Below are positions 688 to 18,853 of a stretch of 32,000 bases of DNA, piece after piece (positions within the stretch are counted from its first letter, which is position 1; the number at the start of each line of letters is the position of its first letter). Source of the DNA: Horticoccus luteus. GTDB taxonomy: Bacteria; Verrucomicrobiota; Verrucomicrobiia; Opitutales; Opitutaceae. Below the pieces are notes generated by a model that saw only the letters and a program-made list of their open reading frames with translations, had not been told where the DNA came from and ran no database searches. A program made the translations under genes and the position numbers. The stretch spans positions 1,560,001-1,592,000 of the forward strand of contig NZ_CP080507.1 of the NCBI RefSeq assembly GCF_019464535.1, in the 5' to 3' direction.

Positions 688-689
688 GA

Positions 690-2953: not shown

Positions 2954-3117
2954 GGCAGGAGGCCGGCGACGTAGCCGGCGAGCGTCGCAGCGGAGAAAAA
3001 GCCGAGCACGAACCACACGCTGCAACGGTGGTGCAGCCGCACACCCACCTGCCGCCGCGTTGTGTGCGTAAGGCCCGAGAGCGGCGCGGGACCGCGCGTG
3101 GCGGGATAGTGTTTCAC
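2950..3117 (-). CDS. possible small membrane protein (55 aa, GTG start)
   Basis: GTG 3117-3115 forms a GTGA overlap with the upstream stop (3114-3116), and the stop at 2950-2952 overlaps the next ATG. C-terminal hydrophobic stretch VWFVLGFFSAATLAGYVAGLL. Supported only by the coupling geometry. Confidence 0.3.
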   Translation of the reverse strand: MKHYPATRGPAPLSGLTHTTRRQVGVRLHHRCSVWFVLGFFSAATLAGYVAGLLP

Positions 3118-4762: not shown

Positions 4763-4835
4763 GATCGTTTCCTGATTACTGGTTGGGTTTCGGTTTTGCT
4801 CGGGCCGCAGCGTTCGCGCGCTGCGGCCCTCTGCG

Positions 4836-6956
4836 TTAAAAGAGCTTCGTCGCGTCGAGTTCCTGGGCGCCCTGCAGGGCCGCTGCACGGCGGTTGCTGG
4901 TCTCCTGCCGGTGCGCGTCGGCCGCGATCGCGGTGGCGAGGCTGCCGCCGGCCGCGGCGTGCTGTGGCTGCGCGCCGGGCGTCGCCTGAGCGAGCTGGGC
5001 GGTGATGCCGGCGCGCTTGCCGCCGTTCTGCGCGACGGTCGTGGCGCCCCAGGCGGCGAGCTTCGCGTCGTTCTCGGCGATCATCAGGGCGAGAGCCTTG
5101 TCTGCCTCGCCGTGGCGGGCGCGGACCGGCGCGAGCACGCACTTCGTGATCAGCCGCGTGATCTCGCCCTGCTCGATGGCGATCGCCTCGCGGTCGCGGA
5201 TATCGACCGCGCCGCGGCGGCGGACCTTGTCGACGAGGCGGCCGTCCGGGAGCGTCACCCAGAGTTGGTTCGGCTGCGCGGGGTCGAAGTAGCCGAGCAG
5301 CGCCGTGCCCTCGGGCAACGCCATCGCCTTCGAGTCGGCGTCGGCGAAGGTGTAGCCCTCGCCGAGGTGCGTGAACGTGATGCGGTGGTTCTCCAGCTTG
5401 CACTGCTTGGGCGTGAGGAGGAGGAGCGCGAGCACGTGCTCGGCGGGCTTCACGAAGGCGACGCCTTCGGTGATGCGGGCAAACTTCTCCAGGGGCGACT
5501 CCCGGCGCGGCACGGGCACGAGCGCCGTGATCTGCTCGCGCGTGAGAGCCTGGGCGGCGGCCAGCGTGATGGCGCCGGAGCCATCGGGCAGCGCGTAATC
5601 GCAGACCTCGCGGAAGCCTTCCATCCCGTGCCGGTCGCGCCGCTCCAGATAGTCGAACACGCGGTGATACGCCGTGAGCGCGTCGTCGAACATCCAGAAC
5701 CCGGTGTGCAGCTCCGCCTGCTGCTCGGGCGTGAGTGCCTCGATCGCGAGGAGTTTCTCGGCGTAGAGGAGCTTCGCCTCCAGGTCGCCGGGGCGCAGGT
5801 CGTAGGTCGCGCCGATCTGGCCGGCGAAGGCGCCCGCGTGATTCCACGCGATGTTGAACGTGCTTTCGATCCAGCCCTTTTCGTAGGGCTTGCCGCCGCG
5901 CTCCACGAAGCCGTTGGGCAGCACCTTGTCGGCGAGGAGGCCGGTGCGCGCGACCTGCACGCCGAGGAGTGCCTGGAGCATCGCGGCGACGTCGTCGGTG
6001 ATCGCGGCGGCGGCGTTTTCGCAGAGAATGGTCACGCCGTAGTCGCGCGGCAGGCCGAACTCGGTGAAGATCGAGAAGAGCAGGCCCTGCACGTCGGCGC
6101 GGGTGATCGCGATCTTCTTGCCGTCCTCATCCTTGAACCGCGGCTTGAGGCCGAGGCCGACGCGGCGGCGCGTGGCGACATCGAGCGCGAGCAGGCCCAC
6201 GCACTCGCAGATTTCGTAGCGGCCGGTGCGCGGGTTGCGCGCCTGGACGAGGATATCCGTGCGGAAGTCGTCGATCGTGATCAGCTCCATGAAGCGGAGC
6301 TGGCTCGTGTCGCGGATGAGATGAGGGAGGTAACGCTTAGCCGCGTGGAAGCCGCGCCGGGCGAGCCGCCGCTCCGCCTTCGACGACTGCTTCGTGTAGA
6401 GGTTGCTTTGCGACCACCCGCGCGGGAAGAAGCCGAAGGGATAACGCTCGGGCGTGTCGCGCTCCGGGTATTGCGTGGCGAAGTATTCGCGCCACGTCCC
6501 GTAGCCGGCGATGGCTTCACCGGCCGCCCACTCCGCCTTGATTTGCATCATGACCGCCCGCGCCGGGTTCTCGCGCTTGTTTTGCTCGACGCGGCGGCGG
6601 AAGAACTCGACGAATGCCGCGGGCACCGCCTCCGGCCCCTTCCACCGCGGGATGAGCACGCGCCAGTCGCGTGTCTTCGTGTAGGCGTAGTAGAGCGTCT
6701 TCAGGTTGCTCGCGCTAAACCCGCGACCCGGATGCTCCAAGGCGAGCCGGTAGCACGTGGCGACGACGCCGTCGGTCGACGAGCGGATATCGTCGAACAT
6801 CGAGATCAACGCCGCGATGCGCTGCCGCTGCTCCTCCGTCGTCTTGTTGTGAAACTCCTCGTGGTGGGCGAGTGGCACGATGGCGGCCACGGCGGCCGGA
6901 ATCGACGACCCGGCCGGGCTGGCCAGCGAAAGAGCGGAAGAATCGGCGGAAGGCAT
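4836..6956 (-). CDS. MuA-like DDE transposase
   Basis: 706 aa. Candidate DDE triad contexts are ITIDDFRTD, LLALDVATRRR and ILCENAAAAIT. HTH-like N-terminus. Size, and position upstream of an AAA+ partner, are as in Mu. Confidence 0.85.
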   Translation of the reverse strand: MPSADSSALSLASPAGSSIPAAVAAIVPLAHHEEFHNKTTEEQRQRIAALISMFDDIRSSTDGVVATCYRLALEHPGRGFSASNLKTLYYAYTKTRDWRVLIPRWKGPEAVPAAFVEFFRRRVEQNKRENPARAVMMQIKAEWAAGEAIAGYGTWREYFATQYPERDTPERYPFGFFPRGWSQSNLYTKQSSKAERRLARRGFHAAKRYLPHLIRDTSQLRFMELITIDDFRTDILVQARNPRTGRYEICECVGLLALDVATRRRVGLGLKPRFKDEDGKKIAITRADVQGLLFSIFTEFGLPRDYGVTILCENAAAAITDDVAAMLQALLGVQVARTGLLADKVLPNGFVERGGKPYEKGWIESTFNIAWNHAGAFAGQIGATYDLRPGDLEAKLLYAEKLLAIEALTPEQQAELHTGFWMFDDALTAYHRVFDYLERRDRHGMEGFREVCDYALPDGSGAITLAAAQALTREQITALVPVPRRESPLEKFARITEGVAFVKPAEHVLALLLLTPKQCKLENHRITFTHLGEGYTFADADSKAMALPEGTALLGYFDPAQPNQLWVTLPDGRLVDKVRRRGAVDIRDREAIAIEQGEITRLITKCVLAPVRARHGEADKALALMIAENDAKLAAWGATTVAQNGGKRAGITAQLAQATPGAQPQHAAAGGSLATAIAADAHRQETSNRRAAALQGAQELDATKLF

Positions 6957-6977
6957 GGCGGTGTCGTTGGGTGTTGG

Positions 6978-8087
6978 TTACACGGGCAGGGCGGATGTCT
7001 TGCCCTTGGCCTCGTCGTAGAGGCGGCGGAATTCGGCGACCGAGTCGGTCACCGTCTGGTGGAGGGTTTCCAGTTGCTGCGGCGTGAGCCGCGCGATGTT
7101 CTCGCGGGAGGTGACGAGTTGGCGGAAGCCGTAGACGCGCTCCGCGACCTCGGTGAAATAGTCTTCGGCCTGACCGGGCTGCGGCGCATCGTCCTCATCC
7201 TCCTTCGCCGTCTCCAGCTCGGTCTTGAGGCCGACGCCCTTGATGCCGTGCTTGATCAGCAGTTCATTGAGCGAAAGGCCGGCCGTGAACTTCTCCAGCT
7301 TGGCCCGGAGCTGCTGCCCGGCGTGGTTGTCGGCCAGATCGAGCGAGGTCTGATCGCCCGGCAGCGCGAGCAATTCCGGCTTCTGCGCCTTCGTCTTCTC
7401 CAGGAAGACCATCGCCAGGCGCATGTAATTGTTCGCCTGGCTTTTTTTGACCGTGCGGCAAATTTCCACCGCGGTGGAAATTTGCCCGATCCACTTGCCG
7501 AAATGCCCGTGGGGCAGCGAGGCCTTCACGCGGTGCAGCGTGAGGCCGGCCAGGATGCCGCCTTTGGCGGCGTTGCTCTCCATTTCGCCCACGGCCGCCA
7601 CTTGGGCGACCGCGAGCGATTGGAGCTTGGCGACACCGTCTTTGGCCACGGCGAGGTCCGGCGCGGCGAGGAGGGTGAGGGCGTGTTTCTTTGGAGAACT
7701 GGACATGTTGGGTTGAGAGTTGAGAGCGGAGGGTTGAGGGGCGGTGGCGGCCGTGCCGCGCTTGATCGCGAGATGCACGGCGGGGATGCTCAGCGGCTTG
7801 CCACCGCGCACTTCGCACCGGTGCGCCCGCAGCCCCTGCCGCGTGAAATTCCCCCGCGTGCAATACGGGCAGTGGAAGAGCGGATCGGGCGGCGTGGCCT
7901 GGCGGATCGCGGCATCCAGGAGGCGGCACTTCGTCGTGCCCTCGCGGAGGTTGCCCGCCAGTTCGCGGGCGCGCCGCAGCACGGCGAGGTCGGTGGCGCC
8001 GGCCGCGAGCGAGTTCTTCAGGTCGTCGATATTGCCGTAGACGATCCGGGCGGCGGCGAGATCGAGGGGCGATTGCGTCGGCTTCAT
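6978..8087 (-). CDS. early protein with an N-terminal C2HC/C2H2-like zinc finger and a DUF3102-like central region
   Basis: 369 aa. FHCPYCTRGNFTRQGLRAHRC (7815-7877) has C-x2-C-x12-H-x-C spacing. GGILAGLTLHRVKASLPHGHFGKWIGQ...ANNYMRLAMVF resembles DUF3102 as I remember it. Acidic helical C-terminus. ATGA overlap with the upstream gene. Confidence 0.55.
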   Translation of the reverse strand: MKPTQSPLDLAAARIVYGNIDDLKNSLAAGATDLAVLRRARELAGNLREGTTKCRLLDAAIRQATPPDPLFHCPYCTRGNFTRQGLRAHRCEVRGGKPLSIPAVHLAIKRGTAATAPQPSALNSQPNMSSSPKKHALTLLAAPDLAVAKDGVAKLQSLAVAQVAAVGEMESNAAKGGILAGLTLHRVKASLPHGHFGKWIGQISTAVEICRTVKKSQANNYMRLAMVFLEKTKAQKPELLALPGDQTSLDLADNHAGQQLRAKLEKFTAGLSLNELLIKHGIKGVGLKTELETAKEDEDDAPQPGQAEDYFTEVAERVYGFRQLVTSRENIARLTPQQLETLHQTVTDSVAEFRRLYDEAKGKTSALPV

Positions 8088-8404
8088 GAGGCGAGGAGGA
8101 CTTTGATCTCGCGCTGGAGCTCGATCAGGGTGGCGCGCGGCAGATCGCGCATGAGCCGGAGGCGGGCCGTCGCGTCGGTCACGGCGCGGACCACAAAGTC
8201 CCGATAGCTCTCGATCGGGATGCGATAGGTGGCGCGCGAAGAGCCCAGGCCGCGGACGTCGAGGGCGTTGATCTTCCCTTCCACGATGAGGTCGATCACG
8301 TGCTGCGGCGTGATACCCAGTTTCACCGCGACCTCCTCCACCCGGAGCGAGACGCGACCGGGAAAGTCGAGCGAGGCGAAGGGAAACTGGAGTTGCTCAG
8401 GCAT
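8084..8404 (-). CDS. excisionase/MerR-type HTH DNA-binding protein
   Basis: 106 aa. VSLRVEEVAVKLGITPQHVIDLIVEGKINALDV...YRIPIESYRDFV is a typical HTH_17/Xis-like pattern. Confidence 0.6.
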   Translation of the reverse strand: MPEQLQFPFASLDFPGRVSLRVEEVAVKLGITPQHVIDLIVEGKINALDVRGLGSSRATYRIPIESYRDFVVRAVTDATARLRLMRDLPRATLIELQREIKVLLAS

Positions 8405-8490
8405 CAGGGCGAGTGGGTGGTTTTAGCGGGGCGCGATAGTGGAAAAGCTGATAGGTGCGGGCGTGCGGAATGGAGGTGCGGCGATGGCGC

Positions 8491-8700
8491 TCAGCGGACG
8501 TCGGCAAACCCCATGACGCGTTGCCCGATTTTCTGCTCGGCGGCGGCGAGATCGTCGGCGCACTGGTGGAAATGCTCGGCGACGACCGCGCTGCTGGTGG
8601 TGTTCGCGATTGCTCGATAGGTGCGGATGCGAGCGTTCACGCATTGCAGGTGATCCTGCACGTGCCCGAGCCGAATCATCTCCTGCTCGGAAGCGGTCAC
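8491..8700 (-). CDS. hypothetical early protein (69 aa, GTG start)
   Basis: Track ORF. GTGA overlap with the stop of the Ner-like gene (8697-8699). Confidence 0.45.
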   Translation of the reverse strand: MTASEQEMIRLGHVQDHLQCVNARIRTYRAIANTTSSAVVAEHFHQCADDLAAAEQKIGQRVMGFADVR

Positions 8701-8888
8701 CGAAGCGCCTCCCCTTGGATGAGCCGCGACAGCGGACCATTACGCCGACCTTTGATCGCGGCATAAACGGTGCCTGCTTTGTGGCCGGTCTGGCGAATAT
8801 ACGCGGCGATAGTCCCGTGCTTCGCGATGAGGCCAGCTTTGACCTCATTTCCCATCGGGCTGCTTTTTTTCTTGTGGGGTTTGCGCAT
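8697..8888 (-). CDS. ner: Ner-like early transcriptional regulator (Cro analogue)
   Basis: 63 aa from ATG 8888-8886 (the track ORF is 16 codons longer). NEVKAGLIAKHGTIAAYIRQTGHKAGTVYAAIKGRRNGPLSRLI aligns by eye with Mu Ner DVIAGLKKRKLSLSALSRQFGYAPTTLANALERHWPKGEQII. It is the first gene of the early operon and divergent from the repressor. Confidence 0.65.
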   Translation of the reverse strand: MRKPHKKKSSPMGNEVKAGLIAKHGTIAAYIRQTGHKAGTVYAAIKGRRNGPLSRLIQGEALR

Positions 8889-8969
8889 GTTATGCGAATG
8901 TGTCGTAAATTTGTTACGAGCATTCCGCAAATGCAAGATTCAAATCGCAACTTTTACGAAGATTTCGGA
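8889..8969. promoter_or_regulatory. divergent early/repressor promoter-operator region
   Basis: An 81-nt AT-richer spacer between the Ner-like gene (-) and the repressor (+). Palindrome TCGTAA-ATTTG-TTACGA (8903-8919) is nested in the imperfect outer arms TGCGAATG (8893-8900) / CATTCCGCA (8921-8929). A third TTACGA half-site lies at 8954-8959. Confidence 0.5.
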
Positions 8970-9575
8970 ATGCGCCTCGCGTTCATTCGCAAAGCACGCG
9001 GGTTGACCCTCAGCGAGCTGAGCAGTGGATCAGCCTCCACCGCGAAGAGCTGGGAGGCTGGCAGCCGACCCCGATCGGATCAATGGGAGGCTGTGGCGGG
9101 CCGTCTCGGCCTTTCGGTCAGCTTCGTATTTCTGGGTGTGCCGAAGCTGCGGGAGGATTTCGATTTTATCGCAAAATTTGCTGACGAGGTCGGGAAGCCG
9201 CCTGACGCGTCCGCTGTCGTTGCGGCTGAGGATCGAGGCACCTATGGAACTCCGGCCTCACTGCGCACAGAGGCTCGCGCGGAATTGGAGCGTGCAATCA
9301 ACGCCGCTGGTGACGACATCACGCGGCTAGGTTGGATCGTCCATCAGATCCGGCTGCATCTTACGCCGGCCGGTCACGGGCAACCGGCCGCGCTCAGTCA
9401 GATTCGGGAGCGCGCTCAAGAGATGCGAGACCGCGCGGCCAAGCTGCCCGCTGGCAGCGAGCGGAACGTCCTGATCAACGCCGCCGCGTTGCTCGAGCAG
9501 AGCGAAGATAATCTGGAGCGTGATCGCGGGGCATTCCGGGCCAAGCGTGATCATACGGAAAGGAGCGCCAGTTAG
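8970..9575 (+). CDS. XRE/Cro-CI-type prophage repressor (Mu c analogue)
   Basis: 201 aa from ATG 8970. An in-frame ATG at 8931 is possible, but the 13 codons between have low GC3. MRLAFIRKARGLTLSELSS... is a canonical XRE HTH N-terminus, followed by a long helical C-terminal domain. Divergent from the early operon. Confidence 0.7.
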   Translation: MRLAFIRKARGLTLSELSSGSASTAKSWEAGSRPRSDQWEAVAGRLGLSVSFVFLGVPKLREDFDFIAKFADEVGKPPDASAVVAAEDRGTYGTPASLRTEARAELERAINAAGDDITRLGWIVHQIRLHLTPAGHGQPAALSQIRERAQEMRDRAAKLPAGSERNVLINAAALLEQSEDNLERDRGAFRAKRDHTERSAS

Positions 9576-9814
9576 TCATGAAGCATTCGTGCGATTCCCT
9601 CGGCCTTCGCCCTGAGTTCCTCGGTCAACACCCATGCGGAAAGACGCCGCGCATTGAGCCGCTCCAGCTCGAAATCGTAATCACGGATCATCTCCTCGGT
9701 GATCGCTCGCATCTCCGCAGCCGTGCGTGCCCGCGCCAAGCGGTGCCGGTAGTGGGCCGCGTTGGGTTTTTGGGGGAGATCAAGCGAAAGCTGAAACGAG
9801 ACGACTTTACCCAC
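9572..9814 (-). CDS. possible small helical protein (80 aa, GTG start), convergent with the repressor
   Basis: The C-terminal 60 aa (NAAHYRHRLARARTAAEMRAITEEMIRDYDFELERLNARRLSAWVLTEELRAKAEGIARMLHD) look protein-like with moderate GC3. The start is uncertain: GTG 9814 with AGGGGA 12 nt upstream, or ATG 9946. The stop codons of this ORF and the repressor overlap (TTAG, 9572-9575). Confidence 0.35.
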   Translation of the reverse strand: MGKVVSFQLSLDLPQKPNAAHYRHRLARARTAAEMRAITEEMIRDYDFELERLNARRLSAWVLTEELRAKAEGIARMLHD

Positions 9815-9916
9815 TGGACGGGTGTTTCCCCTAGTGACGCGGCGGCTCGTAGCGGCGTGCAATAGGAAAAATCGCTGCCGCTCATGAATCCTGCTTGCGC
9901 TCTCTTCCGCACCCGT

Positions 9917-9935
9917 TCCTGTCGGTTTTCGACAG
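9917..9935 (+). promoter_or_regulatory. 7-bp perfect inverted repeat (candidate operator for the RHH protein, or a small hairpin)
   Basis: CCTGTCG-GTTTT-CGACAGG followed by TTTG, ending 10 nt upstream of the ATG at 9945. Confidence 0.4.
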
Positions 9936-9944
9936 GTTTGCTGC

Positions 9945-10349
9945 ATGGCCGATTCCTTGGGCGGAGCGTTCCCTCGCCGGGTGGCTGCCGTATCGGGTTC
10001 GATCAACCTTCTCCCCACCGTTGCCAAATATGCCAAGGCGCGCGCCGAGCAGCTCGGCGTGACACCGTCCCTCCTTCTGCGGTTGCTCTTGCAGAACTAC
10101 CTCTACGGGCCACCGCTCGGCTTGCCTCCTCATCTGGGGAAGCGAGATCGATTAAAGCGGCAGCCGGTGCAGTGCTCGCTGCCGGGGAGCTTGCGGCGGG
10201 CCGGCAAGGCCGCTGCCAAGCGGTGGAAAATGTCGTTCAGCGAACTGATGGAATCGCTCCTGGCGGCCGATGCAGACCGGGGCGAAGACACGCTGCGCAT
10301 CTTTCCTCCCCACAAGAAACCGAAACCCGATACTGAAATCCAGCTATGA
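9945..10349 (+). CDS. tandem ribbon-helix-helix (CopG/Arc-type) DNA-binding protein
   Basis: 134 aa with two consecutive strand-helix-helix units: INLLPTVAKYAKARAEQLGVTPSLLLRLLLQNYL and VQCSLPGSLRRAGKAAAKRWKMSFSELMESLLAAD. ATGA overlap with the downstream lipoprotein gene. Confidence 0.6.
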   Translation: MADSLGGAFPRRVAAVSGSINLLPTVAKYAKARAEQLGVTPSLLLRLLLQNYLYGPPLGLPPHLGKRDRLKRQPVQCSLPGSLRRAGKAAAKRWKMSFSELMESLLAADADRGEDTLRIFPPHKKPKPDTEIQL

Positions 10350-10738
10350 TCCCCAAAGCCTGCCTCCTTGCCTTCATCCTCGCGTGCGCGCTGTTCGCCG
10401 GCTGCGCGTCGCCCACCTTCAGCACCGAGCAGATCGAGGCGAATGTGACGGAGCCCACGCCGTCCGCCGTCGAAACGAAGGTCCGCGACTTTATGGAGCT
10501 TCGCCTGAAAGACCCGGCCAGTGCGGAGTATAAAGTCGGAACGCCGGAAAAGACCGTGCTCACCACAGCGGGCAAGCCGACGTTCGGATGGAAAGTCTCA
10601 GTCCTGATTAATGGGAAGAACAGCTACGGTGGATACACCGGCTTCGAGGGATACGCATTCTTTTTCGTGCACGATCAGATCGTCAGCTACCAGGACCCGG
10701 AGATGGCGAAGATGGGCTGGTGGACCCCCGTGAAGTAA
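10346..10738 (+). CDS. prophage-encoded lipoprotein
   Basis: 130 aa. Signal peptide plus lipobox MIPKACLLAFILACALFAG|C. The mature part contains INGKNSYGGYTGFEGY. Confidence 0.7.
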   Translation: MIPKACLLAFILACALFAGCASPTFSTEQIEANVTEPTPSAVETKVRDFMELRLKDPASAEYKVGTPEKTVLTTAGKPTFGWKVSVLINGKNSYGGYTGFEGYAFFFVHDQIVSYQDPEMAKMGWWTPVK

Positions 10739-10752
10739 TATCTACACAACTG

Positions 10753-10914
10753 ATGCACACCCTCGGCTGGATTGTTGCGGCGGTGGTGGGATTGATCGCG
10801 AGCGTGGCAGTGCTCGTGTGGTGCCTCGACGCGGCGGGGCTCGGTCCGGAAGATCGCGAGGCGGAAGCGGCGCGGACGTTTGATCGCGAGCGGGATCTCC
10901 GATGCCTCAAATAA
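10753..10914 (+). CDS. small single-pass membrane protein (53 aa)
   Basis: Start taken at ATG 10753 (MHTLGWIVAAVVGLIASVAVLVWCL...), followed by a charged C-tail. The track ORF begins 11 codons earlier, inside the lipoprotein gene. Confidence 0.5.
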   Translation: MHTLGWIVAAVVGLIASVAVLVWCLDAAGLGPEDREAEAARTFDRERDLRCLK

Positions 10915-10933
10915 TCGATGCGTGGGACAGCAA

Positions 10934-10961
10934 TTGACCCACCCTTACCGTAGTTTAGTAT
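10934..10961 (+). promoter_or_regulatory. sigma70-like promoter candidate for the two-gene cassette
   Basis: TTGACC (10934-10939), a 16-nt spacer, then TAGTAT (10956-10961). It sits in a 47 % G+C spacer (hand count of 10921-10980). Confidence 0.35.
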
Positions 10962-11007
10962 TCCCTAATTATCCGAGCTTCAATAGTTGGAGCCCATCCA
11001 TTACCCC

Positions 11008-11958
11008 ATGAGCAACGTAAGCAAGCGGCTGATATATCAACGCACGGATTGGCAAATTCCCAGCACCGATCGGCTCCAGCAACTATTTCAGAGAGCACTC
11101 ACCCAACGTGCAGGTGATGCCCGTGCTCAGCCAATTAGTGAGGACGCTTCAGCGACCGCAGGGACGTGGCGAAAGATCACCTATGCCAGTGACAGGAATG
11201 GCTGCGCATTCGGCAAGCTGGTCCAGTTTACACACGGCTTGCGGCAGGAAACCGTGCGCGTGCGGCAAGATGGAGCGGAACCTCCGGAAGGTTCAGTCGC
11301 CGCGCCCGCTGGTGAAGAGTTTTCCGGCGGGGCACTCTACTTTTGCTTTGATGGCGATCACGTCGTCGTCGCCCAATCGCAGTCTTTGCGTATCAGTCAG
11401 CTTGAGGAATATCTCAATTGGCTCCTCAGAGAGCAGCTTCCAGCGGGGAACTTCGTCACGCTCCTCTCGCTTCCACCTGCGGCTGGTCGTCGCATTCTTG
11501 AGCGCACTCCCCCGACATCGGTGATGTTTTCCCGGCCAGTCGAACTTCCGAGCAATGATCAAACCGGCGCGGCGCAGTTTAATCGTGATGCGAAAATCGA
11601 TGCCCTTCAAACGTTCCTTGGAGTGGACGACCTCCGCACGATGATGCCACACGACGTCGCTGCGGGAGGGCGTGTCCAAACGTCCATACGATTATGGTGG
11701 ACGAAGAAGACGGGCGGCGTTCGCCCCGACGAGTTCTTGCAAGGTTTGGGGCGGGTGGGTTTGCGGATGCTCGACGAAGACCCCTCGGTCGACATTGCGG
11801 TCGATGTTGGGGCTACTACGCTCACCAGGCGCCAATTAAGCATGGCTGAGTCATGTTCGATCGCATTGGTCGAGGGGCGGGTTCCGCCGGAGACGGTCTG
11901 GGATAGGATGTTGCGATTTTTAGCGCGGTTGCGGGAACGCGGAGAGATCCTAGACTGA
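11008..11958 (+). CDS. 316-aa soluble protein of unknown function; candidate sensor of a RexAB-like two-gene exclusion cassette
   Basis: ATG 11008 (the track ORF begins at TTG 10987). No TM segment and no assignable catalytic motif. Atypical codon usage (ATA, TTA, CTA, AGT, CAA, GAT frequent) and lower G+C than the flanks. GGALYFCFDGDHVVVAQSQSLRISQLEEYLNWLL recalls lambda RexA FLFVEGDTIGFARTVFGPTTSDLTDFL and an RdgC segment, by eye only. Confidence 0.65.
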   Translation: MSNVSKRLIYQRTDWQIPSTDRLQQLFQRALTQRAGDARAQPISEDASATAGTWRKITYASDRNGCAFGKLVQFTHGLRQETVRVRQDGAEPPEGSVAAPAGEEFSGGALYFCFDGDHVVVAQSQSLRISQLEEYLNWLLREQLPAGNFVTLLSLPPAAGRRILERTPPTSVMFSRPVELPSNDQTGAAQFNRDAKIDALQTFLGVDDLRTMMPHDVAAGGRVQTSIRLWWTKKTGGVRPDEFLQGLGRVGLRMLDEDPSVDIAVDVGATTLTRRQLSMAESCSIALVEGRVPPETVWDRMLRFLARLRERGEILD

Positions 11959-11968
11959 CTCTGTGCGT

Positions 11969-12496
11969 ATGAAAAAGGAGAGCGGCTTTCTGGTCTTGAT
12001 TGGTCTGCTCGGAGCAGGGGCGGGTGGCTGGGCCGCGGACATTTTCGGCGCGAGAGCCGTGGGCAGCCTCCTGATGTACTCGGGCGGATTGGCCACCGCC
12101 TTCTTCTTTGTCGCACGAATGATAAACGCGGCCTTCAATGCAATGACTGAATTGCAAGCGTTTGATCGGCTGACGCGCGACAGGTATGAGCTCGCGATCC
12201 GCACGCTTCGGAGGCGCTTCATCGTGCGCTTGATAGTCGGACTCGCCCTTTCTTTCCTGACCGTGGGAGCAGGTGTGCTCCTGAAAGAGGCGGTGGCCCA
12301 ATCTACAAGGATGACTATGAGCCTCGCAGCTTTTGGAGGAGCGGCGCTGTTGGTGGCAGCCGTTATGGTTGGCGCACAGCTCTGGGCTGCCAGTTGGGCA
12401 GGCGATTACATTGCAGAGTGCAAGCGCATAGCTCGCGAGCAAAACTCTACGCGGGAACGTCTGGCTAATTATTCTCTAGGAAAGCTGCACACCTAA
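11969..12496 (+). CDS. 175-aa four-TM membrane protein; candidate effector partner
   Basis: ATG 11969 (GTG 11963 is an alternative), 10 nt after the upstream stop. Hydrophobic helices are FLVLIGLLGAGAGGWAADIF, AVGSLLMYSGGLATAFFFVARMI, IVRLIVGLALSFLTVGAGVLL and MSLAAFGGAALLVAAVMVGAQLW. Arg-rich central loop and charged C-tail. Tandem TAATAA stops. Confidence 0.7.
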   Translation: MKKESGFLVLIGLLGAGAGGWAADIFGARAVGSLLMYSGGLATAFFFVARMINAAFNAMTELQAFDRLTRDRYELAIRTLRRRFIVRLIVGLALSFLTVGAGVLLKEAVAQSTRMTMSLAAFGGAALLVAAVMVGAQLWAASWAGDYIAECKRIAREQNSTRERLANYSLGKLHT

Positions 12497-12509
12497 TAAA
12501 CAGTGACCC

Positions 12510-12540
12510 AGCCCCGGCTTGAACCGCCGGGGCTTTTTTG
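12510..12540 (+). terminator. rho-independent terminator closing the cassette
   Basis: AGCCCCGGC (12510-12518), loop TTGAACC, GCCGGGGCT (12526-12534), then a T-run to 12539. It begins 14 nt after the stop codon. Confidence 0.75.
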
Positions 12541-12555
12541 TGTCGGTGCGCCGGC

Positions 12556-12583
12556 CAAATTCGCACCGGTCAGTGCGAATTTG
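12556..12583. repeat. perfect 11-bp inverted repeat (candidate protein-binding site)
   Basis: CAAATTCGCAC-cggtca-GTGCGAATTTG with no following T-run. It is followed by three CCAA(T/C)G copies (12585-12608). Lies between the cassette terminator and the first late/lysis-side ORF. Confidence 0.4.
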
Positions 12584-12652
12584 CCCAATGCAGCCAACGG
12601 GGCCAATGGGCTCAGTGACTCGCTCGTGACCGGCTGATATTCTGCGGGGGCA

Positions 12653-12901
12653 ATGACCCCGCCTCGGCCCACGCCGCTTCTCGGATTTGAGACGCCTTAC
12701 GTCAAGGCAGGAGACGTCGTGCTCCCGGTTCTCGCGGGCGTAGGCAAGGACGCCGAGCTGTGCGCCACACCCGCGATGTGGCGGCGCATCTTCGACGTCC
12801 TGGAGCCGCTCGTGCGCGAGGCGCGCGGCGACGCGGGCTCCGCTGTTCCTGCTTCGGTCGGCCGCGCGCCGATCCTCAAGCCCAGCCGCCGCATCCTCTG
12901 A
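12653..12901 (+). CDS. hypothetical protein (82 aa)
   Basis: Track ORF with high GC3 and GGGGG 3 nt upstream of the ATG. No motif recognised. Confidence 0.5.
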   Translation: MTPPRPTPLLGFETPYVKAGDVVLPVLAGVGKDAELCATPAMWRRIFDVLEPLVREARGDAGSAVPASVGRAPILKPSRRIL

Positions 12902-12911
12902 TTTTTCCACC
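12898..12911 (+). promoter_or_regulatory. conserved intercistronic 14-mer CTGATTTTTCCACC (copy 1)
   Basis: Identical 14-mer at 25279-25292. Here its TGA is the stop of the upstream ORF, and the holin-like ATG follows 12 nt downstream. Confidence 0.35.
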
Positions 12912-12922
12912 CGTATCCAACC

Positions 12923-13117
12923 ATGAAAGACACCATCCTGTCCCTCATCCGTCACGGCCTCACCTTTGGCGGCGGCTTCCTCGCTGCCAAGGGTCTCATC
13001 ACCGAGCCCACGCTCGCGACCCTCGTGCCCGCCGTCGTCGCTGCCATCGGCGCGATCTGGGGCGCCAGCGACGAATACCTCGCCGCCAAGAAGGCGAAGG
13101 CGACGCCCGCCGCCTGA
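12923..13117 (+). CDS. holin-like small membrane protein
   Basis: 64 aa. Two hydrophobic segments (GLTFGGGFLAAKGLI and LATLVPAVVAAIGAIWGA) and a Lys-rich C-tail. It heads a block containing spanin-like genes. The call is compositional/positional. Confidence 0.5.
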   Translation: MKDTILSLIRHGLTFGGGFLAAKGLITEPTLATLVPAVVAAIGAIWGASDEYLAAKKAKATPAA

Positions 13118-13119
13118 CC

Positions 13120-13431
13120 ATGTGGGCCGCGGTCACCGCCATCTTCACCGCGCTCGCCGAGTGGCTGCGCCTGAAGCAGCTCACCGCGGCCTACGATCTC
13201 TCCCGTCGTATCGAAACCGACATCGAGGCCGATGAAACCGCGCTCCTCCTGCTCCGCCATCACACTGACGATGATGCTCAGCGTGCTGCTGACCGGCTGC
13301 GGCAGCGTATCATCCGGACCCAAGGCGTCGCCGTCTGCGCCGCTCAACATCTACCAGCCGCGGGTGCTCCTGCTCAAGGCGGGCCAGCCAATCCAGACGG
13401 CGGCGGGGATCTACACCCCGCAAACGGATGA
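13120..13431 (+). CDS. possible i-spanin-like / lysis-associated protein overlapping the next gene
   Basis: 103 aa. N-terminal hydrophobic WAAVTAIFTALAEWL, then a charged helix. GC3 is high only for the first ~45 codons, after which the +1 frame carries the codon bias. Confidence 0.4.
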   Translation: MWAAVTAIFTALAEWLRLKQLTAAYDLSRRIETDIEADETALLLLRHHTDDDAQRAADRLRQRIIRTQGVAVCAAQHLPAAGAPAQGGPANPDGGGDLHPANG

Positions 13432-13525
13432 GACCTGGCACAGCCCGGCCGCATTCGAAGCACTCGAACAGGAAACCCTGAACCTTTCGGCCGCGCTCGC
13501 CCAGGAGCGCGCCCGCACGAAATGA
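13232..13525 (+). CDS. lipoprotein (o-spanin-like), starts inside the preceding gene in the +1 frame
   Basis: 97 aa. MKPRSSCSAITLTMMLSVLLTG|C lipoprotein signal. GC3 about 85-90 % from 13232 onward. ATGA overlap with the next gene. Confidence 0.65.
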   Translation: MKPRSSCSAITLTMMLSVLLTGCGSVSSGPKASPSAPLNIYQPRVLLLKAGQPIQTAAGIYTPQTDETWHSPAAFEALEQETLNLSAALAQERARTK

Positions 13526-14001
13526 TCCCGCTCTTCGCCCAAACCACGCCGTCGCCCGCGGCCGTCGCCTCCTTCGTCAATGTCGTCGAGGTCGCGGCCT
13601 GGCTCGCGGTCGCCTTTGCCGCCGTCGTCGTCGCCTGGCGGCAGATGACGGGGAAGAGCGAGGAAACGCGCATCAGCCCATCGCCCCTCGAAGTGAAGCA
13701 ACACGCCCGCCTGGCGAAGTGGGAGGAGCTGGAGACGGTGAAGGCCGAGGCGCACGGCCGGATCAGCCGCGAGCGCAAGGAGATCGACGCCGCGATCGTC
13801 CGCGTGGAGCAGCAGCAGCGCGCGCTGGGCCTGCGCATCGACGACGACCTGCGCGAAATCCGCGACGCGATGCAGGCCAATAACGAGGCCGCGGAGAAGC
13901 GCGTCGAGCGGATCAACGCCCGGCTCGACAACCTCAACACCGTCGTGACCGACCTGCCCGGCCGGATCGTGGGCCTGATCGATGGCGCGAAGCACCTCTG
14001 A
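13522..14001 (+). CDS. membrane-anchored coiled-coil protein (Mu gp25/DUF2730-like or i-spanin-like)
   Basis: 159 aa. One TM (VVEVAAWLAVAFAAVVVAW), then a long charged helix (EELETVKAEAHGRISRERKEIDAAIVRVEQQQRALGLRIDDDLREIRD...). Confidence 0.55.
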   Translation: MIPLFAQTTPSPAAVASFVNVVEVAAWLAVAFAAVVVAWRQMTGKSEETRISPSPLEVKQHARLAKWEELETVKAEAHGRISRERKEIDAAIVRVEQQQRALGLRIDDDLREIRDAMQANNEAAEKRVERINARLDNLNTVVTDLPGRIVGLIDGAKHL

Positions 14002-14003
14002 CC

Positions 14004-14261
14004 ATGTCGCCGCTCGTCATTCGCAAAACCATTCTCGCCGAACTCGCCGCCGCGCCCGTCGAAGGGCTCACGCAGGCCGGGCTCCTCACGCTCGTCGCGC
14101 TGAAGCTGCCCGGTGTCACCATGGCCGATCTCGCCGACGAGCTGTCCTGGCTGCGCGATCACGCGCTCGCCGTCTTCACCGCGCATCCTCTCGACGAGGA
14201 CAACCGCGAACTGCGCACCTGGGCCGTGACCCAGCCCGGCCGCCTCGCTCTCAAGCAATGA
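14004..14261 (+). CDS. hypothetical protein (85 aa), possibly winged-helix
   Basis: Track ORF with high GC3. It is 2 nt after the upstream stop and has an ATGA overlap with the downstream ATG at 14258. Confidence 0.5.
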   Translation: MSPLVIRKTILAELAAAPVEGLTQAGLLTLVALKLPGVTMADLADELSWLRDHALAVFTAHPLDEDNRELRTWAVTQPGRLALKQ

Positions 14262-14725
14262 GTCCGCGCGTCGCCCTGACCATCATTCTGTCGCTCGTGC
14301 TCGTGCTCGCTCTCGCGATCGCGGGGCTTGTCTACGCCCTCGCAGTCCGTCCGGCGGTCAGCTTTCCGTTGCTGCCGCGCACCCCTTCATCCACCGCAGC
14401 CGCAGACGGCACCACCGTGTGGCGCTCGTGCGCCTTAATCTCGGCCGTAGTCCCTGCGCGTGGATTCTCTTTGCCCTCCTCCGCGGTCACCCGCGGCCCT
14501 GACCATGATCGACCCAACCTCCCGGCCGGTGCCCGTTCGCGCGGGCTTCGGGTTTTCGTAGTTGGCCTGGCAAGCAATACGGCGGCCGCGGCCGTCCACG
14601 CTGCCGGCCGGGAGAGAATTTCTATACCCACCCGTAAATGCACCGCAGCCGCCGCGTCGAGTGTGTCGACGCGTTTTCAACCTGCACCCGCGATGGCTGT
14701 GAGCGCGGGCACGCTCCTGGCATGA
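14258..14725 (+). CDS. possible membrane-anchored protein; 3' extent doubtful
   Basis: ATG 14258 overlaps the upstream stop. The N-terminus MSPRVALTIILSLVLVLALAIAGLVYAL is a convincing TM with high GC3. Beyond about codon 50 the GC3 and protein-likeness decay, although the frame stays open to 14725. Confidence 0.3.
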   Translation: MSPRVALTIILSLVLVLALAIAGLVYALAVRPAVSFPLLPRTPSSTAAADGTTVWRSCALISAVVPARGFSLPSSAVTRGPDHDRPNLPAGARSRGLRVFVVGLASNTAAAAVHAAGRERISIPTRKCTAAAASSVSTRFQPAPAMAVSAGTLLA

Positions 14726-15276
14726 GTCGCAAGCGCCGCAGCGACGCCAAACTCCACGCGCTCCCGGAGCCCGTGAAGGAGCAGCTCATCCGCTGGCTCA
14801 CGGAGGAAAACGTCTCCTATGAAAAGGCGAAGGAACGCCTGGAGATGGATTTCAACGTCCGGGTGTCGGTCGGCGCGCTCTGCGATTTCTACGCGACGGA
14901 ATGCTACCTCCAGACGTCGGCATCCGCGCAGGAGTTCGTGACGCGCGTCGAGGCCGAGGTGCGGGCCGACGGTCGTGCTTACGACGCGGCGACACTCGCG
15001 CTGATCCGCCAGCGCGCCTACCTGCTCGCGCGCACCCAGGGCGCCAGTGTCAACGACCTCGCGACGCTCGCGGGCATCATCGGCGACACGGCGCGGCTGG
15101 AGCTTCGGCAGCGCGAGCTGACGCTCTCCCTGGACAAGTTCCGCCATCAGGTGAAGAGCGACATCGAGAAGGGTCTCGATGCGTTGCACGCCGAGATCAA
15201 GGGCCATGCCGACGCGTTGCAGCTCTTTGAGCGCATGAAGGCGATCGTCATGCACAGCGTGGAGGGCACGTCGTGA
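14722..15276 (+). CDS. terminase small subunit, Mu gp27-like (DUF3486-like)
   Basis: 184 aa from ATG 14722. MSRKRRSDAKLHALPEPVKEQLIRWLTEENVSYEKAKERLEMDFNVRVSVGALCDFY matches the gp27/DUF3486 N-terminal pattern by eye. Its stop overlaps the TerL start. Confidence 0.65.
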   Translation: MSRKRRSDAKLHALPEPVKEQLIRWLTEENVSYEKAKERLEMDFNVRVSVGALCDFYATECYLQTSASAQEFVTRVEAEVRADGRAYDAATLALIRQRAYLLARTQGASVNDLATLAGIIGDTARLELRQRELTLSLDKFRHQVKSDIEKGLDALHAEIKGHADALQLFERMKAIVMHSVEGTS

Positions 15277-17300
15277 TGATGCACGCCAGTGCGGCGAACA
15301 ACGATCGCCGCCAATCCGCTTTCGGAGCGCTCGACGCGAAGCTGCACTCCAGTGACCAGCTCGCCGACGTGCCGCGCGCCGACAGCTTCAAGGCGTTTCT
15401 CCGCGACGACGCTCGCGTGAAGACGAAGGACGGCTCGGCGCCCTACAGTTTCACGGGCCGCGAGGCGATCGAGGGGATCGTCGATCGCATCGATCTCATC
15501 CTTGGCTCCGAGACCGGCAAGCCGCTCAAGGACGCGTCGCTCGCCGTGTGCGGCGGCGCGCAGTGGGGCAAGTCCGTCCTCGGGCTGAACTTCACGGCCT
15601 ACATGACCGGCCTGAAGTATCGCAACGTCGGATATTACCTCCCGGACGACGATCTGGTGCAGGGTGTCGTCGACGGCAAATTCCGTCCGGAAGTGCTCGA
15701 CCTGCTGCCGTGGTATGCCCGGCAAATCTCGGTCGGGAAGACCGTGAACGAGAGCGGCAAGGCGGTGAACCGCAAGGGCGCTTTCCTGGTCTCGCGCCCC
15801 GGCGGTTCTCCTGGCCTGGGCATGTTCATCGGCCTCAACAAGAAGGTGCCGACGACGTTCACGATGGACGCCGTCATCCAGGACGAGAAGGACGACATCA
15901 AGGCCGCGCGGGCGAAGTTCCTCCGTGGCCGCATGACGTCGAGCGATCTGCGTTTCTCGCTCGTGATCGGCACGCAACGCATCGCTGGTGCCGGCCAGAA
16001 TGCGGAGTTCGAGGCGGGCACCCAGGAAGTCTGGGAGCTGATTGATCCGGTCATCGCCGACGGCTTTTGCCCGGAGGAGCACTGGCCGCAGATCTGCCGC
16101 GTGGCGCTCGACGGCACGCCGAAGCCCGACGATCCGCAGCTCGGCTGGGAGGGCGTGTTCAAGCGGCCCGGCAGCGACGAGGTGATCGCGACCTTCGATC
16201 CGGAGGCGCACTACTACCTCGCCAACCCGCTCACGGGCACGCCGCTCGATCGGAAGCACGGCCGCTGGGTCTGCCGTCGGCCGGACCGAATGAAGGAGCG
16301 GAAATTCTCGATGCGCGTCTCTCAGTTTGGCATCGAGGCGATCGATCTCGTCCAGATCGTCGCGCATTGGCGCGACGCCGTCGCGGACCCGGAGCAGATG
16401 ATCGTCTTCGCCTGCGATCGTCAGGCCATGCCGCGCAGCACGCTGCAGCAGCTCGATCAGGCAATTCTCGATCGCGCCCGCACGACGGAGCGGTTTCCGC
16501 TCTCGCTCGCCGGGCTCGGCGAGGCGCCGTGCTACGGCGGACTGGATACGGGCGACCGCTGCTGGTTTACCGTGCGCGAGAGCGCGAGCCCGGTGGTGAA
16601 GCGCCTGCGTTACGCCGAGCAGATCGCCCTTGGCCGCGTGAAGGCGCGGGCAGTCGAGCTGTTTCATCGCTGCCACCTGTCGTGCCTTTTCATCGACGCG
16701 CGGCCGGCGGCCCAAGAGGCGCGGCACATCACCTGGGCCGTGCACAACCTCCTCGACTACGCGTGGCCGAAGATCGACGAGCCCGAAAAAGCCTACATCC
16801 AGTTTCCCGGCGACCTCGCCTGGGATGGCCCGTCGGGCAAGTGGAAGGGCCTTCGCGCCGCCGTCGTCGAGTTCGCGCTGAAGGATGGCCAGGGCGTGCG
16901 TCACAAGCTCGGCATCACCCAGGAGGGCAAGTTCTACCCGATCATCCAGTGCAATCGCGATGAATCGATCCAGGGCGTGATCAACGAGCTGCTGACGATC
17001 AAGGAAGGGCTGGTCCACGTGGTCGACGGCAAGTCGCGCGAGCTGCCGATCCTCCGGCTGCCGTTCACCGGCACGGGCGCGGCGCCCGCCGCCGAGCTGC
17101 TCAGCCAGCACTTTCTCGCGGGCTCGAAGAAAGACCGCCATGAGACGACGGCCGAGGAGCACTTCGTCGACAAAATCGAAAACCACTACCTGCTCTCGGC
17201 CACGTATGCCCGGCTGGCGGAGTCGATCGGCTGCTCCGCCATCGCCGCGCCGTTCGTTTACGAGCGCGTCGAGCCCGCCTCGTCCACCAGCGCCCTCTGA
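15273..17300 (+). CDS. terminase large subunit (lambda GpA-like)
   Basis: 675 aa (GTG 15273 or ATG 15276). Walker A-like CGGAQWGKSV and Walker B-like AVIQDEKDD. Size and N-terminal layout resemble GpA-type terminases. Lies upstream of the portal. Confidence 0.8.
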   Translation: MMMHASAANNDRRQSAFGALDAKLHSSDQLADVPRADSFKAFLRDDARVKTKDGSAPYSFTGREAIEGIVDRIDLILGSETGKPLKDASLAVCGGAQWGKSVLGLNFTAYMTGLKYRNVGYYLPDDDLVQGVVDGKFRPEVLDLLPWYARQISVGKTVNESGKAVNRKGAFLVSRPGGSPGLGMFIGLNKKVPTTFTMDAVIQDEKDDIKAARAKFLRGRMTSSDLRFSLVIGTQRIAGAGQNAEFEAGTQEVWELIDPVIADGFCPEEHWPQICRVALDGTPKPDDPQLGWEGVFKRPGSDEVIATFDPEAHYYLANPLTGTPLDRKHGRWVCRRPDRMKERKFSMRVSQFGIEAIDLVQIVAHWRDAVADPEQMIVFACDRQAMPRSTLQQLDQAILDRARTTERFPLSLAGLGEAPCYGGLDTGDRCWFTVRESASPVVKRLRYAEQIALGRVKARAVELFHRCHLSCLFIDARPAAQEARHITWAVHNLLDYAWPKIDEPEKAYIQFPGDLAWDGPSGKWKGLRAAVVEFALKDGQGVRHKLGITQEGKFYPIIQCNRDESIQGVINELLTIKEGLVHVVDGKSRELPILRLPFTGTGAAPAAELLSQHFLAGSKKDRHETTAEEHFVDKIENHYLLSATYARLAESIGCSAIAAPFVYERVEPASSTSAL

Positions 17301-17302
17301 TC

Positions 17303-18853
17303 ATGCCACGCGCAAAGAAGACCACGTCCCGCATCGACGCCGAGCGCGTCCGGCTCGCGCTGATGGGCAGCGAGAACATGATTCGCGGCCTCTCCGCGGA
17401 ACGCCTCGCGCGGGCGCTCGACGATTTCCGCCGCGGTTGGCTGCGCGAGGCCGCCGTCCTCTGGCAGATCATCCGCGAGCGGGATGACACGACGCTCGCC
17501 GTCACGGAAAAACGTGATCTCGACGCAGCGCTCCTGGATTACGAGATTCTGCCGGTCGACGATTCGCCGGAGGCGGAGAGAGACAAGCAGGCGCTCAAGG
17601 CTGCCTACAACGGGCTCACCGCCACCGATGCACTCGACCAGAACAAGCGCGGCGGCGTCGCGGCGCTGATCAAGATGATGATGCACGCCGTCGGTCACCG
17701 ATGGGCGGTGTTCGAGCTGATTTGGGACCCGAGCGGAGAAGACCTCACGGCAGAATTTCGTTTTGTGCCGCTGCAATTCTTCGAGCACACGGTCGGGCGG
17801 TTGCGCTTCCTGCCGGTCGAAGGCGCCTATCAGGGTGAGGACTTGGAGGACGGTGGCTGGATGGTCGTCTGCGGCCCCGGCCTCATGCAGGCCACCAGCA
17901 TTGCCTATTTTTTGAAGCGCTCGCCGCTCCGTGCGTGGGCGATCCTCTGCGACAAGTTTGCGGTTCCATATCTGCACGGCGAATCGTCGGCCCAGGTGGG
18001 CTCGAAGGAATGGAACGCGTTTCGCGATGCGCTCGCTTCGCTCGTCAACGACGGCGCGGTGCTCACGTCGCCGGGTGCGAAGATCACGCCGATCACCATC
18101 ACGGGCGCGGAAGCCCCGGCCGAGGCGCTCGTCGATCGTTGCGACCGCGGGATCACGCGCATCTGGCGCGGCGCCGATCTCGGGACGATGAGCAAGGACG
18201 GCGCGGCGGTCGGTTCGAATCCCCAAGCGAGCGAAACCGACATCTTGTCCGCGGCCGACGCGCAGAACATCAGCGAGACGCTCAACTACTATTTCGATCG
18301 TCAGGTGATCCGGTATCGGTTCGGCACCGAGCCGAAGGCGTATTTCAAGCTCAAGCCGCGGACGAAGATCAACCAGGACCTGCAGCTCAAGATCGACGAC
18401 CAGCTCATCAAGTGGGGCTGCAAGCTCGGGATCAAAGACCTGATGGAGCGTTACGGCCGCGCCGAGGCGGACGCCGGGGAGGAGGTCGCGATCGCCTCCG
18501 TGCCGCCGAGTCCGTTTGAAGCCCAGGCTTCTACGGCCGTCGTTCCGGCTGCCTTGGTCAACGAAGCCGCCAGCAATCGCGTGGCGCTCGTCGCCCGCGC
18601 GGCGGCCCAAGCCCGACCAGCCGAGCAGGCGATCCTTGATCCGATCCTTCGGCGCCTCGCGGCGATCGAGGCGATGCCCGATCCCGCCGCCCAGCGGGCC
18701 GCGCTCCAGGAGCTGCGCGCCGCGTGGCCGGTGCTCGGTCGCGCCGCGCTCCAGCAGGTGCCGGCCCTCGCCCAAGCCATCGAGCAGGCGATCGCGCCCG
18801 CCGTCGTCAGCGGCCTCGCCGAAGTCCCGAAATCGTCGCCCCAAAACGCATGA
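17303..18853 (+). CDS. portal protein, Mu gp29-like (DUF935-type)
   Basis: 516 aa, starting 2 nt after the TerL stop. The N-terminus LSAERLARALDDFRRGWLREAAVLWQIIRERDDTTLAVTEKRDLDAALLDYEILP matches the DUF935 pattern by eye. Confidence 0.8.
   Translation: MPRAKKTTSRIDAERVRLALMGSENMIRGLSAERLARALDDFRRGWLREAAVLWQIIRERDDTTLAVTEKRDLDAALLDYEILPVDDSPEAERDKQALKAAYNGLTATDALDQNKRGGVAALIKMMMHAVGHRWAVFELIWDPSGEDLTAEFRFVPLQFFEHTVGRLRFLPVEGAYQGEDLEDGGWMVVCGPGLMQATSIAYFLKRSPLRAWAILCDKFAVPYLHGESSAQVGSKEWNAFRDALASLVNDGAVLTSPGAKITPITITGAEAPAEALVDRCDRGITRIWRGADLGTMSKDGAAVGSNPQASETDILSAADAQNISETLNYYFDRQVIRYRFGTEPKAYFKLKPRTKINQDLQLKIDDQLIKWGCKLGIKDLMERYGRAEADAGEEVAIASVPPSPFEAQASTAVVPAALVNEAASNRVALVARAAAQARPAEQAILDPILRRLAAIEAMPDPAAQRAALQELRAAWPVLGRAALQQVPALAQAIEQAIAPAVVSGLAEVPKSSPQNA

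Follow-up and report, generated by a model that had tools for sequence, protein, structure and literature searches.

A two-gene unit in a Mu-like prophage of Horticoccus luteus, probably of RexAB type by its fold and architecture

What might a prophage gain from a pair of adjacent 'hypothetical' genes, encoding one soluble and one membrane protein, placed between its putative repressor and its lysis genes? The question is raised by the unit at 10915-12540 of a 32,000-nucleotide (nt) stretch of the Horticoccus luteus chromosome (Verrucomicrobiota), the whole of which we call the window, where the gene for a protein of 316 amino acids (aa) is followed by that for a 175-aa membrane partner, within DNA that is a Mu-like prophage. 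A sequence-only reading of this unit had likened it to rexA-rexB of phage lambda; RexAB is the oldest known abortive-infection system. From the analysis described here we conclude that the unit is, with high probability, of RexAB type by fold and architecture. Arguing by analogy with characterised systems, we also consider it probably to be a moron of the Mu-like prophage, a cassette of two genes that together exclude other phages by abortive infection.

The evidence that carries this reading begins with the structure predicted for the 316-aa protein. An AlphaFold model made from an alignment of 136 sequences (model confidence scores pLDDT 91.4 and pTM 0.88) was compared by Foldseek with the Protein Data Bank (PDB), where lambda RexA (8TWQ) was both the top match and the sole match at an expect value (E) of 0.001 or below (E 2.9e-5, probability 1.00), the alignment running full length over 330 columns at 10 % identity. 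An independent, low-confidence model made from five sequences returned the same single match, 8TWQ, at E 5.7e-5. RexA has a globular beta-sheet domain that is split by the insertion of an alpha/beta dimerisation domain, and it ends in a C-terminal helix (PMC11077077); the order of secondary structure in the higher-confidence model, with an N-terminal multi-stranded beta-sheet and flanking helices, a middle alpha/beta domain and a long C-terminal helix, agrees with this architecture. As modelled, the 316-aa protein has the lambda RexA fold, with its split beta-sheet domain, inserted alpha/beta dimerisation domain and C-terminal helix. Foldseek against BFVD added five more uncharacterised phage proteins with the same fold (E 1.7e-13 to 2.5e-7). 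The sequence-only reading had named a match to a virion, replication or metabolic family as a result that would tell against it; no protein of these kinds appeared in the Foldseek comparison with the PDB, whose top 50 matches included neither RdgC nor Kiwa.

At the level of sequence families, the 316-aa protein has no match in Pfam, NCBIfam or PADLOC, and 136 members of its family scanned against Pfam and PADLOC had none either. It does match, end to end, phrog_3482 (E 4e-17), a PHROGs group whose function is unlabelled and which the present analysis ties to the RexA fold and to a four-transmembrane (four-TM) partner; phage members of this type with the same partner were recovered by tblastn from the Acinetobacter Ab105 phages, Stx2a_1447, WGPS2, SfIV and Perceval. 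Four relatives, at 49-53 % identity, came from a word-index search, and when all of 1.84 billion cluster representatives (clusters at 50 % identity) were searched exhaustively with a profile, there were 647 proteins at E <= 1e-3, 329 of them at E <= 1e-10, nearly all being 315-345 aa long and matching over their full length. This puts the family at 647 such clusters or more. The family carries the signature EF..g.LYFg...NHVv..QS..LR...LE.[HY]LNWLL, with R39, G77, E133 and W138 as near-invariant columns; conserved basic columns (K6, R39, R128 and R253) are compatible with non-specific DNA binding by a dimer, without being a test of it.

The second line of evidence is the constancy of the pairing. 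In all 18 loci examined a co-oriented gene for a four-TM protein (167-200 aa) directly follows the RexA-fold gene, its start either overlapping that gene or lying no more than about 20 nt downstream; in three of these loci the contig ends within the partner gene, and in Shigella phage SfIV the partner is truncated by IS1. Coliphage Perceval has its CI repressor followed by a 340-aa family protein, a 'transmembrane protein' and then kil-gam-bet-exo, which is the slot that rexA-rexB occupies in lambda, and in Acinetobacter baumannii phages the pair comes directly after repressor cI. Together with RexA as the only significant PDB match, the conserved pairing and the occupation of the rexAB slot bear out the logic of soluble sensor plus four-TM protein which the sequence-only reading had put forward, and its expectation that the two genes would be found together elsewhere.

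The partner itself is less easily placed. Hydropathy analysis gives the 175-aa protein four TM segments, at residues 7-25, 30-48, 85-103 and 117-135, with a 36-residue TM2-TM3 loop containing eight lysines and arginines and a C-terminal tail containing six, so that the four hydrophobic helices with basic loop and tail noted earlier by eye are upheld. Because of the positive-inside rule we predict an N-in/C-in topology in which the loop and tail are cytoplasmic. Lambda RexB, scanned in the same way, also has four segments comparable with these. Partner sequence homology to the 175-aa protein is detectable in close relatives only (31-44 % identity), and partners from distant loci align at 11-18 % identity; what the distant partners do share with it is the plan, in which TM1-TM2 are followed by a polar loop with a basic cluster at its end, then by TM3-TM4 and a charged tail.

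The 175-aa protein falls into no family of Pfam or PADLOC, and 12 partners scanned against the same two collections gave only sub-threshold hints: PADLOC '4TM effector' (E 0.0014) and RTasSLATT (E 0.0045), in one partner each, and a weak holin-family match of one partner in the Pfam scan. The 175-aa protein has a faint, sub-threshold match to SLATT_2 of NCBIfam (E 0.16), and the partner profile matches the alpha-pore-forming toxins (alpha-PFTs) MakA and NheL1 in their head domain, again below threshold (E 0.003-0.009) and nearly gap-free over 95 residues. This last match covers profile positions 73-167 (residues ~65-165 of the 175-aa protein) and comprises a helix, a hydrophobic hairpin and a helix. 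The 4TM, SLATT and alpha-PFT hints all fall in the same C-terminal half (loop helix, TM3, TM4 and tail) and are rich in hydrophobic residues. We take these hints, which come from profile comparison, as a lead and not as a finding. By analogy with the lambda proteins we infer that the 175-aa protein would act as a RexB-like effector and the 316-aa protein as a dimeric, DNA-binding sensor/activator. It is also possible, if rather unlikely, that a RexA sensor has here become coupled to a separate kind of pore-former, the partner being no homologue of RexB but an effector of alpha-PFT (ClyA/MakA-type) or SLATT type; its insertion module would then be the C-terminal half, as an amphipathic helix, a hydrophobic hairpin and a second amphipathic helix. 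If true, pores of more than one kind would have been joined to the RexA sensor.

Several observations weigh against the RexAB-type exclusion reading. There is no sequence-level likeness to RexA or RexB in the Pfam and PADLOC scans or in hhalign comparisons, whose probabilities were 0.1-0.6 %: for RexA, 0.4 % against the single sequence and 0.1 % against a four-sequence profile; for RexB, 0.6 % when the partner alignment was compared with a four-sequence profile. RexA was likewise missing, at E <= 10, when PDB sequences were searched by hmmsearch with the family profile. The likeness of the partner to RexB is one of topology only. The global TM-score of the 316-aa model to 8TWQ is low, at 0.35-0.40 (root-mean-square deviation ~16 A), which could be due to a different hinge angle between the domains. 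The sigma-70-like promoter candidate proposed for the spacer ahead of the pair does exist, with 9 of 12 consensus matches, but is not significant, two such sites occurring in 5 kb against 1.2 expected. We identified no phenotype report for any member of the window's sequence family. Lastly, PMC11077077 describes a RexB-independent role for lambda RexA, which binds DNA and biases the bistable switch to lytic growth, and by analogy defence need not be the sole function of the window pair.

The low hhalign probabilities (<1 %) also leave the motif-level likeness to RexA that had been seen by eye without statistical support. By secondary-structure order only, the motif in question and its counterpart in RexA share a position in the hairpin-helix region of their globular domains. 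The resemblance to RdgC that had been suggested alongside it was not sustained: the 316-aa protein has no such Pfam match, and RdgC is missing from the top 50 PDB matches that Foldseek gave for either model. RdgC is linked to this fold only indirectly, via RexA (PMC11077077).

Were the unit to work as a RexAB-type exclusion cassette, we would envisage the following sequence of events. The pair would be expressed in the lysogen, by analogy with lambda RexAB and RexABpp of Pseudomonas putida, from its own promoter or by read-through of the repressor-strand transcript. The RexA-fold protein would dimerise and clamp DNA non-specifically, and during superinfection the dimer would sense a phage-induced DNA or protein-DNA intermediate. 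The sensor might then activate its membrane partner via the cytoplasmic Arg-rich loop or tail, whereupon the partner would oligomerise into a channel or lesion and the membrane potential and ATP would collapse, so that the infected cell would be arrested and the infection aborted.

Other explanations start from the same parts. The strict co-occurrence of overlapping or abutting genes would fit a stoichiometric pair of toxin/antidote-like character equally well, in which toxicity or antiviral action would reside in the RexA-fold protein itself, sequestered by the membrane protein until infection releases it; PMC12894663 describes the Rex-like pair gp30/gp31 of mycobacteriophage Butters as working in this manner. 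According to the same paper, however, the other four described Rex-type systems have a membrane effector; the partner profile hints, weakly, at pore-forming modules (MakA hairpin, 4TM, SLATT), and the Pfam and PDB profile scans revealed no nuclease- or toxin-like domain in the soluble protein, so that we regard this reversal of roles as improbable. To much the same degree we doubt that the pair serves mainly the prophage's own lysis-lysogeny decision, with a DNA-binding RexA-fold modulator tethered or tuned by the membrane partner. That lambda RexA biases the switch to lytic growth without RexB (PMC11077077) speaks for such a role, as does the position of the pair in many phages, on the repressor strand and adjoining immunity genes; yet the pair also occurs where the phage switch is absent (as Tn7-like cargo, beside AbiJ, in a head module and on the Bremerella chromosome), and the cassette passes between phages whose regulators are unrelated.

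Genes for a lipoprotein and a small TM protein precede the pair, and the lysis block comes directly after it; these neighbours, the low TM-score to RexA and the weak holin-family match of one partner could together point to a membrane module for superinfection exclusion, injection blocking or lysis timing that is unrelated to Rex, the RexA match then being convergent or spurious. Set against this, RexA was the sole significant PDB match of two independently built models (probability 1.00), the position of the pair with respect to lysis genes varies widely in other elements, and a terminator stands between the pair and the holin gene; we judge this explanation a shade less probable again than the two before it. 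Least likely of all, at the margin of consideration, is a Kiwa-like system (membrane KwaA with the DUF4868 protein KwaB) of inverted gene order, which had been offered as an alternative analogue. Its parts are superficially the same, a TM protein next to a DNA-associated one that is soluble and ~310 aa long, but neither the window proteins nor 136 family members match DUF4868, KwaA or KwaB in Pfam or PADLOC, the top 50 PDB matches by Foldseek contain no Kiwa chain, and the gene order is the opposite one in all 18 loci. The absent DUF4868/Kwa matches and the opposite gene order effectively refute it.

Returning to the favoured reading, that of a RexAB-type moron, the layout of the unit (Table 1) is as the sequence-only reading had described it, in its two open reading frames (ORFs), the gap and stop codons between and after them, and the terminator. 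We take the ATG at 11008 as the start of the first gene because homologues begin at the same residue in the alignment. A gap of 10 nt (11959-11968) separates the coding sequences, that of the 175-aa protein having an alternative start at GTG 11963 and ending in tandem TAATAA stops at 12494-12499. The terminator has a 9-bp stem (12510-12534) with eight G-C pairs, followed by a T-run; it folds at -24.7 kcal/mol (z = -3.15), and one of 200 shuffled sequences folds equally well. Transcription of the pair could come by read-through from the upstream putative repressor gene on the same strand. An Rfam scan of 8000-14000 returned no match at E <= 0.1, by which an RNA element in the spacers was ruled out.

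The unit is foreign in composition. Its spacer (10915-11007) has 48 % G+C, the 500-nt windows over 10501-12500 have 57-58 % with 63-70 % in the flanks, and G+C at third codon positions (GC3) is 0.615 in the 316-aa gene and 0.642 in the 175-aa gene, against 0.83-0.93 in the transposase, terminase, portal and holin genes. These GC3 values and the comparison between prophages given below substantiate the low G+C and horizontal acquisition, as a moron, that had been claimed. A direct repeat bracketing the unit had been suggested as a possible insertion scar; an indel distinguishes its two copies, and either strand of the window has three occurrences of the core, TGACCCA; because this 7-mer core occurs six times in the window we read the repeat as probably due to chance.

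Table 1. Coordinates of the two-gene unit and of the prophage genes around it in the window (HTH, helix-turn-helix)
Feature	Position	Strand	Remarks
Mu Gam gene	2212-2742	minus	early operon
Transposase gene	4836-6956	minus	early operon
HTH_17-like ORF, weak	8084-8404	minus	E 3.5e-4, under the Pfam cut-off; early operon
Putative repressor ORF, weakly HTH-like	8973-9575	plus	E 0.06 to an HTH structure; first plus-strand ORF between early and late blocks
Lipoprotein gene	10346-10738	plus	signal peptide and lipobox FAGC; phrog_2320 (function unlabelled), E 7e-20
Small single-TM gene, 64 aa	10720-10914	plus	overlaps lipoprotein gene
Sigma-70-like promoter candidate	10934-10961	plus	TTGACC-16 nt-TAGTAT, in AT-rich spacer
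RexA-fold gene K0B96_06555, 316 aa	11008-11958	plus	predicted cytoplasmic; annotated 'hypothetical'
Four-TM partner gene K0B96_06560, 175 aa	11969-12496	plus	predicted inner-membrane; annotated 'hypothetical'
Intrinsic terminator	12510-12540	plus	closes the unit; ~380 nt ahead of holin gene
Pam3-type holin gene	12923-13117	plus	late genes
Large terminase gene	15273-17300	plus	late genes
Mu portal gene	17303-18853	plus	late genes

The prophage around the unit (window 1-20000) is divergent in layout, with an early transposition operon on the minus strand and the putative repressor, accessory, lysis and structural genes on the plus strand, a layout also found in two other Mu-like prophages among our loci (L001 and L022). 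The pair lies ~1.4 kb downstream of the putative repressor, which faces the transposase operon, with three small ORFs between them. The placing of the unit on the repressor strand of the immunity arm, as originally proposed, holds for the strand and is weaker for the identity of the repressor, whose likeness to HTH proteins is slight. The small TM gene that had been said to end just before the unit was confirmed; its GC3 (0.68) is below that of the core genes, and that of the lipoprotein gene which it overlaps is slightly below (0.81). These two genes may be additional lysogeny-expressed morons, serving for example in superinfection exclusion.

Where else does the pair reside? In L001 and in the Rhodocyclaceae prophage L022 the order is that of the window, an HTH repressor being followed by the pair and then by lysis and terminase genes. 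A further Mu-like element (L025) has the pair (3719-5284) inside the head-morphogenesis module, between the Mu F/tail-S genes and the Mu protease gene and co-oriented with the late genes, a site that is unusual for a lysogeny-expressed defence cassette. In Stx2a-converting phages (L009, Stx2a_1447, 1705-6543; WGPS2 type) the pair is found on the opposite strand between antiterminator Q and stx2AB, and in Shigella phage SfIV (L010), likewise on the opposite strand, between Q and the lysis genes; the site between Q and stx or lysis genes is a classic moron site. RefSeq holds the Stx-phage version in 14 of 5,426 complete Escherichia coli genomes, including O157:H7, with both genes called 'hypothetical'. 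In SfIV (3501-4324 of L010) the partner has been reduced by IS1 to 108 aa with three TM segments, leaving the RexA-fold gene orphaned in what amounts to a natural knock-out. One GenBank record of an Acinetobacter phage labels the RexA-fold homologue 'DefenseFinder protein'.

Beyond such phages, Tn7-like transposons on two unrelated metagenomic contigs (L002, 1648-4587; L024, 3436-10554) have the pair at the head of their cargo, immediately behind TniQ; the second contig additionally encodes TnsA/Mu-transposase-C and TniB, and the cassette therefore also travels on transposons. At the end of one prophage the pair stands beside AbiJ; among other loci, one has an AbiEii-like neighbour (a faint match) and one a PIN-domain neighbour, and on the chromosome of Bremerella (Planctomycetota) the pair has only a Mu F fragment nearby. 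A single RexA-fold protein (P0009) occurs on two contigs, L016 (partner 4928-5266) and L017 (partner 1259-1714), and on L016 the partner, called with 112 aa, is separated from it by 135 nt. This is the L017 partner with its N-terminus either lost or wrongly called, perhaps from a frameshift or an assembly error.

When the window prophage is compared with L001, the two proteins of the pair are 49 % and 32 % identical, and otherwise only the transposase (27 %) and a head protein (26 %) are detectably similar; from this we take the cassette to have been exchanged independently of its carrier. The pair is thus a mobile cassette, found at accessory sites of prophages and transposons and passed between unrelated phages. 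Location in the immunity region is common but not universal, given its presence as Tn7-like cargo and at other moron sites.

These findings extend an old paradigm and do not introduce a new principle. Only five Rex-like systems have been described, by the count given in the 2026 P. putida paper (PMC12894663). The claim that the window system was undescribed therefore stands in one sense, the window family being absent from Pfam, NCBIfam and PADLOC, and falls in another, pairs of RexAB type having already been validated, most recently in P. putida (PMC12894663). What is new beyond the literature searched is the great size of the family, whose members include proteins from Verrucomicrobiota, Planctomycetota and Proteobacteria, and its absence from Pfam, NCBIfam and PADLOC 2.0. 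RexA-fold and four-TM pairs extend beyond lambdoid coliphages, actinophages and one Pseudomonas prophage to a family of hundreds of clusters, labelled 'hypothetical' and carried by Mu-like, Stx2a-converting and Shigella serotype-converting phages, A. baumannii prophages and Tn7-like elements, by which candidate defence genes are flagged in clinically relevant prophages. The 136 sensor and 12 partner sequences aligned here provide a basis for profile models in defence-annotation tools, and the diversity of the alignment offers material for seeking the trigger of RexA and the RexA-RexB interface.

How closely, then, does the window pair resemble the systems already known? With lambda RexA/RexB it has in common the gene order from soluble to membrane protein, the RexA fold (as modelled) and a four-TM partner, and both pairs are prophage-borne, lie on the repressor strand and end at a terminator. 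They differ in size, RexA having 279 aa against 316-345 aa for the soluble proteins of the family and RexB 144 aa against 167-200 aa for the partners; in the TM2-TM3 loop, of ~17 aa in RexB and ~35 aa in the partners; and in the C-terminal tail, the partners carrying a charged tail of 30-60 aa where RexB has almost none. The setting differs too, the lambda system being lambdoid whereas the window pair lies ~1.4 kb from its putative repressor in a Mu-like phage of a Verrucomicrobiota host, and by sequence homology the pair has no detectable similarity to lambda RexA and RexB.

The actinobacteriophage pairs (Sbash gp30/gp31, CarolAnn gp44/gp43 and Butters gp30/gp31) are likewise prophage pairs of soluble and membrane proteins near the immunity region, which exclude heterotypic phages, and actinophage RexA homologues dimerise and bind DNA non-specifically (PMC11077077). 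These belong to another host phylum and other phage types, some are inverted relative to the repressor, and we liken them to the window pair by description only; Butters differs from the other Rex-type systems in its reversed effector logic (PMC12894663).

The nearest likeness is to RexABpp of P. putida prophage P1 (PP_5643/PP_5644; Rosendahl et al. 2026, PMC12894663), a defence system with experimental support, for which both genes are required. Its soluble protein binds DNA non-specifically in electrophoretic mobility shift assays, and overexpression of this protein causes partner-dependent growth arrest and membrane permeabilisation (PMC12894663). As with the window pair, the relation to RexA is visible only by HHpred or structure and the genes were annotated as hypothetical; the soluble protein (37.5 kDa with its His tag, ~325 aa) is near the window protein in size, and PP_5644, whose start overlaps the end of the first gene, is reported to cross the membrane with four TM helices so that its termini lie on the same side (PMC12894663). 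RexABpp lies downstream of a CI-like repressor with two genes between, where the window pair has three small ORFs between. The function of RexABpp is experimentally supported while that of the window pair is argued by analogy. In every feature that we compared, from the published description and not from sequence, RexABpp agrees with the window pair, and the latter qualifies, by fold and architecture, as Rex-like in the sense of Adams et al. 2024 and Rosendahl et al. 2026.

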